Source of the DNA: a plasmid
Assembly: GCF_988243305.1 (NCBI RefSeq)
Contig: NZ_OZ547141.1
Length of the DNA: 3,731 bases
Strand: one strand, 5' to 3'
Under the pieces are notes generated by a model. That model did not search any database and was not told the origin of the DNA. It worked only from the letters and a program-made list of their open reading frames with translations. The first letter of the stretch is position 1; each line of letters starts with the position of its first letter. Of the stretch, positions 1 to 3,731 are shown piece by piece. Both the position numbers and the translations under genes were made by a program.

Positions 1-457
<457 letters not shown>

Positions 458-627: not shown

Positions 628-1304
<677 letters not shown>

Positions 1305-1332
1305 TGTCAGCTTGTTTTTATGATATGAGAAC

Positions 1333-1361
1333 TTGAGATCCTTTCTATCTCGTCGTAATCT
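1333..1361 (+). promoter_or_regulatory. RNAII (replication primer) promoter: -35 TTGAGA 1333-1338, -10 TAATCT 1356-1361
   Basis: Same hexamers and 17-bp spacing as the pMB1/ColE1 RNAII promoter as I recall it (TTGAGATCC...CGTAATCT); sits immediately upstream of the RNAI-complementary region. Confidence 0.75.
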
Positions 1362-1371
1362 CTTGCTGTGT

Positions 1372-1479
1372 AAACGAAAAAACCGCCTTGCAGGGCGGTT
1401 TTTCGAAGGTTCTCAGAGCTACCAACTCTTTGAGCCGAGGTAACTGGCTTGGAGGAGCGCAGTCACCAAAACTTGTTCT
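1372..1479 (-). ncRNA. RNAI antisense copy-number control RNA (about 105-108 nt)
   Basis: Minus-strand sequence acaagttttggtgactgcgctcctccaagccagttacctcggctcaaagagttggtagctctgagaaccttcgaaaaaccgccctgcaaggcggttttttcgttt closely resembles p15A/ColE1 RNAI and ends in the G/C hairpin plus U-tract terminator. Confidence 0.8.
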
Positions 1480-1482
1480 TTC

Positions 1483-1512
1483 AGTTTAGCCTTAACAGGC
1501 GCATGACTTCAA
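1483..1512 (-). promoter_or_regulatory. RNAI promoter (-10 TAAACT, -35 TTGAAG on the minus strand)
   Basis: Hexamers read directly upstream of the RNAI 5' end; 18-bp spacer; position analogous to the ColE1 RNAI promoter. Confidence 0.55.
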
Positions 1513-1971
1513 GGCTAACTCCTCTAATTCGGTTACCAGTGGCTGCTGCCAGTGGCGATAAGTCGTGTCTTCTCGGTTTGGATTCAAGTCGATAGTTACC
1601 GGATAAGGCGCAGCGGTCGGACTGAACGGGGGGTTCGTGCATACAGTCCAGCTTGGAGCGAACGACCTACACCGGGCCGAGATACCAACAGCGTGAGCTA
1701 TGAGAAAGCGCCACGTTTCCCGAAGGGAGAAAGGCGGACAGGTATCCGGTAAGCGGCAGGGTCGGAACAGGAGAGCGCACGAGGGAGCTTCCAGGGGGAA
1801 ACGCCTGGTATCTTTATAGTCCTGTCGGGTTTCGCCACCTCTGACTTGAGCGTCGGTTTTTGTGATGCTCGTCAGGGGGGCGGAGCCTATGGAAAAACGC
1901 CATCGGCGCGGCCTTTGTCCCTGGCTTCGGCTTTTTGCTCACATGTTCTTTCCGGCGTTATCCCCTGATTC

Positions 1972-1980
1972 TGTGGATAA
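1972..1980 (-). promoter_or_regulatory. DnaA box (TTATCCACA)
   Basis: Exact consensus 9-mer on the minus strand within cggttatccacagaatcag, the same context as the DnaA box downstream of the pMB1 origin as I recall it. Confidence 0.5.
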
Positions 1981-2112
1981 CCGTATTACCGCCTTTGAGT
2001 GAGCTGACACCGCTCGCCGCAGTCGAACGACCGAGCGTAGCGAGTCAGTGAGCGAGGAAGCGGAAGAGCGCCTTATGTGACATTTTCTCCTTACGCTCCT
2101 CTATGCCGTTCT

Positions 2113-2129
2113 GCATCCTGTCCGGATGC
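2113..2129 (-). terminator. Short hairpin (6-bp stem GCATCC/GGATGC, 5-nt loop) directly after the rom stop codon; possible weak terminator
   Basis: Inverted repeat read directly from the sequence; no U-tract follows on the rom strand, so intrinsic-terminator function is doubtful. Confidence 0.3.
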
Positions 2130-2130
2130 G

Positions 2131-2325
2131 TTATATCCCGGTAAGATTTTCCGCTTCAAAGCGTGTCTGTATGCTGTTCTGAAGTTCTTCCGCGAGTTCG
2201 TGCAGCTTCTCACACATGGCGGCCTGTTCGTCAGCATCAAGTGCGTCCAGTTTTTCGAGCAGCGTCAGGCTCTGGCTTTTTATGAATCCTGCCATGTTGA
2301 GTACGGTTTGCTGCTGCTTGTTCAT
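2131..2325 (-). CDS. rom: Rom/Rop RNA one modulator protein (64 aa)
   Basis: ORF-track protein MNKQQQTVLNMAGFIKSQSLTLLEKLDALDADEQAAMCEKLHELAEELQNSIQTRFEAENLTGI aligns closely with ColE1 Rop (MTKQEKTALNMARFIRSQTLTLLEKLNELDADEQADICESLHDHADELYRS...); it is oriented toward the origin as in ColE1. Confidence 0.9.
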   Translation of the reverse strand: MNKQQQTVLNMAGFIKSQSLTLLEKLDALDADEQAAMCEKLHELAEELQNSIQTRFEAENLTGI

Positions 2326-2413
2326 CTTTCTGTTTTCTCCGTTCTTTCTGTCATCTGCGTTGTGTGATTATATCGCGTACCACTTTTCGACTGTTTTACC
2401 GTCGGTATTCTGC

Positions 2414-2447
2414 TGTCTGACTCTTTGACGGGCATTTCTGTCAGACA
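2414..2447. repeat. Inverted repeat, 8-bp arms TGTCTGAC / GTCAGACA with 18-bp spacer, in the rom-mobC intergenic region (function unassigned)
   Basis: Read directly from the sequence (arms 2414-2421 and 2440-2447). Confidence 0.8.
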
Positions 2448-2515
2448 ACACTGTCACTGCCAAAAAACTGCCGTGCCTTTGTCGGTAATTCGAGCTTGCT
2501 GACAGGACAGGATGT

Positions 2516-2557
2516 GCAATTGTTATACCGCGCATACATGCACGCTATTACAATTGC
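2516..2557. repeat. Inverted repeat, 12-bp arms GCAATTGTTATA / TATTACAATTGC (11/12 complementary) with 18-bp spacer, about 50 bp upstream of the mobC-like start; candidate operator or promoter element
   Basis: Read directly from the sequence; an adjacent short palindrome GCCCTG-gt-CAGGGC lies at 2556-2569. Confidence 0.75.
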
Positions 2558-2608
2558 CCTGGTCAGGGCTTTGCCCCGACACCCATGTCAGATACGGAGC
2601 CATGTTTT

Positions 2609-2932
2609 ATGACAAAACGAAGTGGAAGTAATACGCGCAGGCGGGCTATCAGTCGCCCTGTTCGTCTGACGGCAGAAGAAGACCAGGAAATCAGAAAAAG
2701 GGCTGCTGAATGCGGCAAGACCGTTTCCGGTTTTTTACGGGCGGCAGCTCTCGGTAAGAAAGTTAACTCACTGACTGATGATCGGGTACTGAAAGAAGTT
2801 ATGAGACTGGGGGCGTTACAGAAAAAACTCTTTATCGACGGCAAGCGTGTCGGGGACAGGGAGTATGCGGAGGTGCTGATCGCTATTACGGAGTATCACC
2901 GTGCCCTGTTATCCAGGCTTATGGCAGATTAG
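2609..2932 (+). CDS. mobC: MobC/MbeC-like relaxosome accessory protein with N-terminal ribbon-helix-helix DNA-binding fold (107 aa); family assignment is from recollection, not a search
   Basis: ORF-track protein 2585..2932; preferred start is the second ATG at 2609, which has a GGAG 9 nt upstream (2596-2599). After a basic N-terminal tail (TKRSGSNTRRRAISRP), the segment VRLTAEEDQEIRKRAAECGKTVSGFLRAAAL has the strand-helix-helix pattern of RHH proteins. Context is a ColE1-family replicon next to rom. Confidence 0.6.
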   Translation: MTKRSGSNTRRRAISRPVRLTAEEDQEIRKRAAECGKTVSGFLRAAALGKKVNSLTDDRVLKEVMRLGALQKKLFIDGKRVGDREYAEVLIAITEYHRALLSRLMAD

Positions 2933-3008
2933 CTTCCAGGGGAGAAAACTGTCGAAAACAGACGGTATGAACACTGTAAGCTCCCAAAGTGATCACCACT
3001 CGCTTTCA

Positions 3009-3022
3009 TGCATAGCTATGCA
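3009..3022. promoter_or_regulatory. Perfect 14-bp palindrome TGCATAGCTATGCA; ArgR-box-like element of the cer accessory region
   Basis: Palindrome read directly; resembles the ArgR box half-sites TGAAT/ATTCA with one mismatch each; centred about 108 bp upstream of the XerC arm. Confidence 0.45.
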
Positions 3023-3096
3023 GCGAGCTGAAAACGATCCTGACGCATTTCCCCGGTTTTCTTAGGGTAAAACATCTCTTTTTGCAGTGTCTGTGT

Positions 3097-3121
3097 CAGA
3101 ATCGCGCTCAGCGCGATTCTG
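3097..3121. repeat. Perfect hairpin: 11-bp arms CAGAATCGCGC / GCGCGATTCTG with 3-nt loop, abutting the XerC arm
   Basis: Read directly from the sequence; no flanking T-tract on either strand, so not a canonical intrinsic terminator. Confidence 0.85.
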
Positions 3122-3122
3122 T

Positions 3123-3152
3123 GGTGCGTACAATTAAGGGATTATGGTAAAT
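3123..3152. other. XerC/XerD core recombination site: XerC arm GGTGCGTACAA 3123-3133, central region TTAAGGGA 3134-3141, XerD arm TTATGGTAAAT 3142-3152
   Basis: Matches the ColE1 cer core GGTGCGTACAA-TTAAGGGA-TTATGGTAAAT from memory, with the 8-bp central region typical of cer-type rather than dif-type sites. Confidence 0.8.
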
Positions 3153-3168
3153 ACAATTGGTTAAATTA

Positions 3169-3206
3169 GGGGTCTGACGCTCAGTGGAACGAAAACTCAC
3201 GTTAAG
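3169..3206. repeat. Tn3 38-bp terminal inverted repeat (bla-proximal end, IR-R)
   Basis: GGGGTCTGACGCTCAGTGGAACGAAAACTCACGTTAAG matches the Tn3 terminal repeat as recalled; followed by the standard Tn3 sequence leading into the bla stop codon. The flanking 5 bp outside the repeat is AATTA (3164-3168), an AT-rich target. Confidence 0.9.
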
Positions 3207-3315
3207 GGATTTTGGTCATGAGATTATCAAAAAGGATCTTCACCTAGATCCTTTTAAATTAAAAATGAAGTTTTAAATCAATCTAAAGTATATATGAGTA
3301 AACTTGGTCTGACAG

Positions 3316-3731
<416 letters not shown>

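Follow-up and report, generated by a model that had tools for sequence, protein, structure and literature searches.

The stretch of DNA analysed here, which we call the window, comprises 3,731 nucleotides and is a complete circular plasmid. Rotation aside, it is 100% identical to NZ_CP138772.1, the plasmid unnamed5 of Klebsiella oxytoca strain 45. It is composed of a retron-Se72-type ColE1-like backbone and a truncated Tn3 with blaTEM-1, and the annotation of NZ_CP138772.1 lists four genes, namely rop, a small 'mobA', blaTEM-1 and a resolvase gene (tnpR). Accordingly, Pfam matches on the plasmid are to Rop, to a NikA-like mobilisation protein and to resolvase domains. There is no Rep-like open reading frame in the plasmid's ORF list and no initiator gene in the annotation of NZ_CP138772.1. 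The features of the plasmid are, by coordinates and strand:

1333..1361, plus strand: promoter P2 of the RNAII primer, placed by homology (-35 box TTGAGA, 1333-1338; -10 box TAATCT, 1356-1361; 17 nt between them)
1369..1476, minus strand: RNAI, the antisense copy-number and incompatibility RNA of 108 nt, running from 1476 (5' end) to about 1369 (3' end) (RF00106 and homology)
1439..1467, minus strand: stem-loop I (RNAI nt 10-38), loop CCUCCA at 1450-1455, same as in p15A
1408..1436, minus strand: stem-loop II (RNAI nt 41-69), loop UUGGUAG at 1419-1425
1375..1405, minus strand: stem-loop III and terminator (RNAI nt 72-102), loop CUGCAA at 1388-1393, same as in p15A
1370..1897, plus strand: RNAII pre-primer of about 527 nt, its ends placed by homology to ColE1 RNAII
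1483..1512, minus strand: promoter P1 of RNAI, placed by homology (-35 box TTGAAG on the complement of 1507-1512, -10 box TAAACT on that of 1483-1488, 18 nt between them)
2131..2325, minus strand: rom/rop, 64 aa (PF01815 Rop in Pfam, E 1.5e-32; annotated in NZ_CP138772.1 as a Rop family protein)
2609..2932, plus strand: NikA-like mobilisation accessory protein, annotated as 'MobA', 107 aa, WP_000166966.1 (Pfam PF21983, E 2.8e-18)
3121..3150, plus strand: cer-like core for XerCD multimer resolution, GGTGCGTACAATTAAGGGATTATGGTAAAT
3169..3206, plus strand: terminal inverted repeat of 38 bp with which the truncated Tn3 begins, matching the Tn3 of plasmid pREF1-18-3 with 100% identity
3316-3731 plus 1-445, minus strand: blaTEM-1 (annotation)
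628-1185, minus strand: tnpR (annotation and Pfam resolvase domains)

RNAI is confirmed as a genuine feature at 1369-1476. The Rfam model RF00106 matches the minus strand from 1474 to 1374 over its full length, with 94.6 bits against a gathering score of 47 and an E-value of 1.2e-17, and the two ends, 1476 and 1369, were set by alignment to ColE1 and p15A. The RNA folds into three stem-loops that follow a 9-nt single-stranded 5' tail, with a minimum free energy of -39.5 kcal/mol; its shuffles reach -26.7 +/- 3.4 kcal/mol (z = -3.7), and 0 of 200 fold as well. A weak RF00106 match on the plus strand, at 1328-1406 (24.8 bits, E 0.13), was rejected as the palindromic terminator of stem-loop III read from the opposite strand.

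A generic consensus scan for promoters and terminators made no call for P1, P2 or the RNAI terminator. P1 was assigned from the alignment of ColE1, pMB1 and p15A and from the established promoter positions of ColE1 and pBR322, and P2 from its two hexamers, both of which are kept in ColE1, pMB1, p15A and CloDF13. RNAII starts at G1370, which is homologous to ColE1 RNAII +1, and the switch from RNA to DNA is predicted, likewise by homology, at the conserved GGAAAAACGCC motif, in the A-run at 1893-1897. From P2 to GGAAAAACGCC, the window is colinear with ColE1, pMB1, p15A, CloDF13 and the RSF1030-like plasmid described below. The locus thus possesses both a three-stem-loop RNAI of about 108 nt with a 5' tail and an overlapping RNAII of about 500-550 nt that reaches the conserved origin, which bears out the original prediction of a ColE1-family replicon.

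The kissing complex between RNAI and RNAII, which is stabilised by Rop/Rom, keeps RNAII from forming the primer hybrid (PMC8683028), and we infer such a kissing mechanism for the replicon in the window. RNAII would be transcribed rightwards from about 1370 to prime DNA synthesis near 1893-1897, and RNAI, made leftwards from 1476, would be complementary to its first 108 nt. RNAI would then meet nascent RNAII by loop-loop kissing, with pairing of the 5' tail to follow, and primer maturation would be blocked. Rom (2131-2325) would stabilise the kissing complex, and RNAI control would both set the copy number and decide incompatibility. The NikA-like 'MobA' at 2609..2932 is part of the context and lies outside copy control.

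A 53-aa open reading frame at 1481-1642 on the minus strand is absent from the annotation of the window's own record. Open reading frames at matching positions within RNAII are labelled 'replication initiation protein' in ColE1 (784-942) and in several relatives, among them a 2690-bp S. sonnei plasmid (L010, 820-981). Almost certainly, the label is an artefact of annotation, as replication of the ColE1 type requires no plasmid initiator and relies on host RNA polymerase, RNase H and Pol I.

Reference replicons and the mosaic structure of the origin

For comparison with known systems, ColE1 was represented by NC_001371 and CloDF13 by NC_002119. For p15A, pMB1 and the RSF1030-like type, probe sequences served solely to find database records, and the records that they matched were used as references. 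p15A was represented by two independent references, a natural 2454-bp plasmid and a region in Rosetta2. The latter adjoins cat and rare-codon tRNA genes and therefore represents the pACYC-derived pRARE2 plasmid. The pACYC184 RNAI probe is found with 100% identity in Rosetta2(DE3), BL21-RP, BL21-RIPL and natural plasmids of 2.39-2.45 kb. The pMB1 reference was drawn from a pUC57 derivative.

The RSF1030-like reference is the 8274-bp plasmid pREF1-18-3 (L009, NZ_CP107237.1). The pRSFDuet origin used as a probe is 99.3% identical to natural plasmids including this one, and it is from this match that we provisionally apply the label 'RSF1030-like'. pREF1-18-3 has a pOSAK1-type backbone, with the lsoAB toxin-antitoxin and a MobA that shares its accession with that of the window plasmid (WP_000166966.1), and its rop is interrupted by a complete Tn3. 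In size and cargo, it agrees with the classical description of RSF1030, and RSF1030 may be simply pOSAK1 plus Tn3. Four of the mismatches between pREF1-18-3 and the pRSFDuet probe are two apparent pair swaps in stem I, which could reflect either true differences of the vector or errors in the probe.

Along the replicon, the identity of these references to the window is distributed as follows:

RNAI, 1369-1476: p15A 105/108 (97.2%), RSF1030-like 79.1%, pMB1 63.1%, ColE1 64.0%, CloDF13 67.3%
RNAI promoter, 1477-1530: p15A 92.6%, RSF1030-like 90.7%, pMB1 46.8%, ColE1 44.3%, CloDF13 39.2%
Segment 1664-1760: p15A 48.5%, RSF1030-like 95.9%, pMB1 94.8%, ColE1 95.9%, CloDF13 89.9%
Segment 1926-2075: p15A 56.0%, RSF1030-like 97.3%, pMB1 93.3%, ColE1 87.3%, CloDF13 62.3%

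The switch from p15A-type to RSF1030/pMB1-type sequence lies at about 1477-1565. Taken over its full length, the replicon is 86.0% identical to pMB1, 83.9% to ColE1, 80.8% to p15A and 71.4% to CloDF13; from 1394 onward, it is 92.1% identical to the RSF1030-like plasmid. p15A-like sequence does not extend across the full RNAII and the origin, given the 48.5% and 56.0% of the two downstream segments and the 80.8% overall. The replicon is therefore a mosaic with a p15A-type RNAI, yet not p15A as a whole origin, and for its origin-proximal half, as for the rop-mob backbone, the RSF1030/pOSAK1 lineage is the closest relative. It is a clear case of the known mosaic evolution of ColE1-like replicons, in which a control module (RNAI with the 5' end of RNAII) from one lineage is combined with an origin-proximal module from another. 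Two observations of the original prediction are thereby upheld: RNAI is close to that of p15A with several substitutions (105 of 108 positions are identical), and the downstream origin is nearer to pMB1 than to p15A, in 1664-1760 (94.8% vs 48.5%) as well as in 1926-2075 (93.3% vs 56.0%).

The comparison with the individual systems adds detail to this picture. Like p15A (pACYC184 and pACYC177, the pRARE plasmids and natural 2.4-kb plasmids), the window has the same RNAI promoter hexamers and an RNAII that is short between 1514 and 1515, where the 23-25-nt segment of ColE1/pMB1 is missing. Unlike p15A, it has a P2 spacer that is unique to the window replicon, non-p15A-like sequence from about 1556 and, further downstream, rom, the cer-like site and a mob remnant. 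The RSF1030/pOSAK1 type, represented by pREF1-18-3, is the top overall match, with 92.1% identity over 1394-2189 and 93.7% over 2185-3152; it reaches 97.3% downstream of ori, and its stem-loop I and stem-loop II loops are the same as in the window. By contrast, its stem-loop III and its RNAII promoter are unrelated to those of the window, the apex of stem-loop III being ColE1-like (GUUGGUAGC) instead of CUGCAA. Finally, the pMB1/ColE1 type (pBR322, pUC, ColE1) shows the same layout of P2, RNAII, RNAI, ori, rom and cer-like site, and its origin-proximal half is 93-100% identical to the window in 1664-1845 and 1926-2075, whereas the window lacks the 23-25-nt segment after the RNAI promoter and differs in the loops of stem-loops I and III.

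Just upstream of the RNAI start, at 1477, the RNAII strand of the window carries a T, in contrast to the C of p15A and ColE1. A T is also found at the equivalent position of the pUC57 derivative that served as the pMB1 reference and of the RSF1030-like plasmid. We take this position to be the site of the pUC high-copy mutation relative to pBR322; here, the pUC-like base coexists with rom on the same plasmid. At the far end of the backbone, 3101-3158 is 86% identical to ColE1 3887-3944, which is presumably cer, and the cer-like site sits directly before the end of Tn3.

Specificity elements of RNAI and plasmid compatibility

The loops are the region that matters for compatibility, divergent loops by themselves are no guarantee of it, and single point mutations in RNAI can shift incompatibility (PMC9458437). 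ColE1/pMB1 (which form one group), p15A, CloDF13 and RSF1030 are separate incompatibility groups, and cross-interactions are argued to depend on copy number and not to be necessarily reciprocal (PMC9458437). For the role of stems or of RNAII-specific downstream sequence, the same source expressly notes that it can offer no data.

The p15A region of pRARE2 and the natural 2454-bp plasmid have all three loops of the window (CCUCCA, UUGGUAG and CUGCAA) without any change, and p15A also shares the 9-nt 5' tail ACAAGUUUU with the window. UUGGUAG is the loop II that the window and p15A have in common with ColE1, pMB1 and the RSF1030-like plasmid. In pMB1/ColE1, the loops of stem-loops I and III differ from those of the window, in CloDF13 all three (3/3) differ, and in the RSF1030-like reference, a provisional name, stem-loop III is wholly different. 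The alignment of the loops with ColE1, pMB1, p15A, CloDF13 and RSF1030-like references thus assigns the RNAI of the window to the p15A type, and identity with a known incompatibility type is the outcome that the original prediction had itself named as its refutation. Its description of an RNAI that is neither of pMB1 nor of p15A type is right in the first part, with 63% identity to pMB1 and different loops in stem-loops I and III, and not supported in the second, the three loops and the 5' tail being those of p15A.

Only three differences separate this RNAI from that of p15A, and none of them falls into a loop or the 5' tail. At window position 1434 (RNAI nt 43), in the 5' arm of stem II, C replaces the U of p15A and turns a U-A pair of the lower stem into a C.A mismatch. 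At 1415 (RNAI nt 62), in the 3' arm of stem II, U replaces A, which provides an additional A-U pair and makes the upper stem II longer. The third difference, at 1371 (RNAI nt 106), lies in the tail beyond the terminator hairpin. The plasmids Ec_2149 and Ec_2367 have the nt 62 change without the nt 43 change, which shows that the two arise independently in relatives. Judged from the sequence, the changes in stem II could alter the presentation of the loop or the speed of binding.

These substitutions, two of which reshape stem II, speak for the view suggested in the original prediction, namely that the replicon represents a distinct incompatibility type that is stable beside both pMB1 and p15A vectors. 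The view also draws on the RSF1030/pMB1-like character of RNAII beyond about 1556 and on the effect that single RNAI point mutations can have on incompatibility (PMC9458437). It is opposed by the lack of any substitution in the loops and the 5' tail, the elements of first contact, and by the predicted duplex energies. Window RNAI with p15A RNAII gives -206 kcal/mol and p15A RNAI with window RNAII -210 kcal/mol, compared with -222 and -220 kcal/mol for the cognate pairs, such that the heteroduplexes hold 93-96% of the cognate energy by what is a crude measure. On the same scale, duplexes between p15A and the RSF1030-like plasmid reach -156 to -162 kcal/mol (about 71-74% of cognate) and those between p15A and ColE1 -108 to -119 kcal/mol (about 50% of cognate). 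Moreover, the apparent specificity variants among the relatives of the window, described in the next section, alter loop II or invert loop III, and the window allele does neither. A distinct incompatibility type hence strikes us as very unlikely.

ColE1 and pMB1 share one incompatibility group with RNAIs that are one base apart, and the loops and tail of the window are those of p15A; therefore, a p15A-specificity allele is best supported. Overall, we consider it likely, with a probability of roughly 0.8, that a p15A-type RNAI controls the sole ColE1-family replicon of this plasmid, which is a mosaic with an RSF1030/pOSAK1/pMB1-like origin half. The RNAI is probably not a new compatibility type, but the ordinary antisense copy-control RNA of a small resistance plasmid. 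For p15A vectors, among them pACYC and pBAD33, we predict incompatibility with the plasmid. Compatibility would be expected with pMB1/ColE1 and CloDF13 and, because the stem-loop III of RSF1030 is unrelated, probably also with RSF1030. Of the compatibility that had been proposed originally, the part concerning pMB1 vectors thus appears plausible, and the part concerning p15A vectors seems unsupported in view of the identical loops. The practical consequence is small: where the blaTEM-1 plasmid or its retron-carrying relatives are kept beside laboratory vectors, interference would be expected with p15A origins and not with pMB1/pUC origins.

A p15A recognition type does not have to imply full and mutual exclusion. 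Past nt 190 or so, RNAII is not p15A-like, and there are differences in the promoter spacers and at position -1; therefore, RNAI dosage and RNAII sensitivity could differ from those of p15A, which could make incompatibility asymmetric. It is conceivable, albeit unlikely, that incompatibility with p15A is weak or one-directional and that co-residence might look tolerable under selection. In this case, one would point to the presence of rom here, as pACYC vectors are presumably without it, to the differences from p15A outside RNAI, at 1477 (RNAI -1), 1497 (P1 spacer) and 1341-1353 (P2 spacer), and to the different downstream RNAII. Cross-interactions that are non-reciprocal and dependent on copy number have been argued for in general (PMC9458437), but for the plasmid at hand the argument is purely inferential.

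More specifically, p15A RNAI might inhibit this replicon less strongly on account of the two stem-II substitutions and the non-p15A RNAII downstream, and partial or one-way compatibility might result, a scenario to which we give little credence. If it were true, stem changes, besides loop changes, would tune incompatibility, and the allele and its natural relatives would constitute a ready-made series of near-orthogonal p15A-derived origins, whose further members would be the single-base variants in loop II and those plasmids of S. sonnei in which loop III is inverted.

Natural relatives and the truncated Tn3

The p15A-type RNAI and the mosaic replicon that it probably controls are found in a number of other plasmids. 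In the retron-Se72 ColE1-like plasmids of about 4.05 kb from E. coli, Salmonella and Shigella (for example pCol NZ_CP066843.1), the backbone at 1289-3168 is 99.8% identical to the window, and the 781-bp replicon, RNAI included, is 100% identical. Where these plasmids encode the retron reverse transcriptase and effector, the window has a truncated Tn3 (blaTEM-1, tnpR). In PLSDB, 15 records match the 781-bp replicon with an identity of 99% or more, and 26 records, from E. coli, Salmonella, Shigella and Klebsiella, match the 124-bp RNAI region at this level. As the same replicon occurs in other hosts, it is therefore functional in nature. It is also already known, in the sense that it is present in public databases many times and that the mosaicism of ColE1-like origins is well established.

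As a sign of natural co-residence, a second ColE1-type origin was sought in the annotation of two larger relatives, pSCU-105-2 and p11_MLI105, each of which has a single rop/mobA module and extra resistance cargo. The neighbouring plasmid of K. oxytoca strain 45 encodes a Rep initiator and has no ColE1-type replicon assignment.

Among the relatives, two single-base variants of the otherwise universal loop II UUGGUAG were observed in natural p15A-like RNAIs, UUGGCAG in pDETEC64 (L008) and UUGAUAG in a 1917-bp K. pneumoniae plasmid (L012). Judging from these loops, both plasmids are candidates for naturally diverged compatibility types. pDETEC64, an E. coli plasmid of 3731 bp, was also considered as the same plasmid as the window and was rejected, since its gene content differs and its loop II is one base off. 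A different change is seen in 2690-bp S. sonnei plasmids (L010, NZ_CP110402.1, about 701-824). Their stem-loops I and II are as in the window, both stem-II bases included, and the apex of their stem-loop III is the exact reverse complement of that in the window (1383-1398), with UUGCAG for CUGCAA. Such a loop inversion may be a simple natural specificity switch, although some cross-pairing might persist after it, because the central UGCA is self-complementary.

The truncated Tn3 spans 3169-3731 joined to 1-1296 and comprises the terminal repeat, blaTEM-1, tnpR and part of res, which is interrupted at about 1289-1296. The whole segment is 100% identical to the Tn3 of pREF1-18-3. On one side, the terminal repeat abuts the backbone directly at 3169 (3168/3169). 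On the other side, the joint between Tn3 and backbone at 1289-1296 is an 8-bp sequence, TATAACAT, that is present in both parents, the res site I region of Tn3 and the backbone of the retron plasmids. The larger pSCU-105-2 (9.7 kb) and p11_MLI105 (11.8 kb) have the same backbone and the same Tn3 piece and, in addition, the retron, IS6100, mph(A) and IS26. From this, the window plasmid appears to have arisen by a deletion at res, either via resolvase acting on a pseudo-site or via microhomology.
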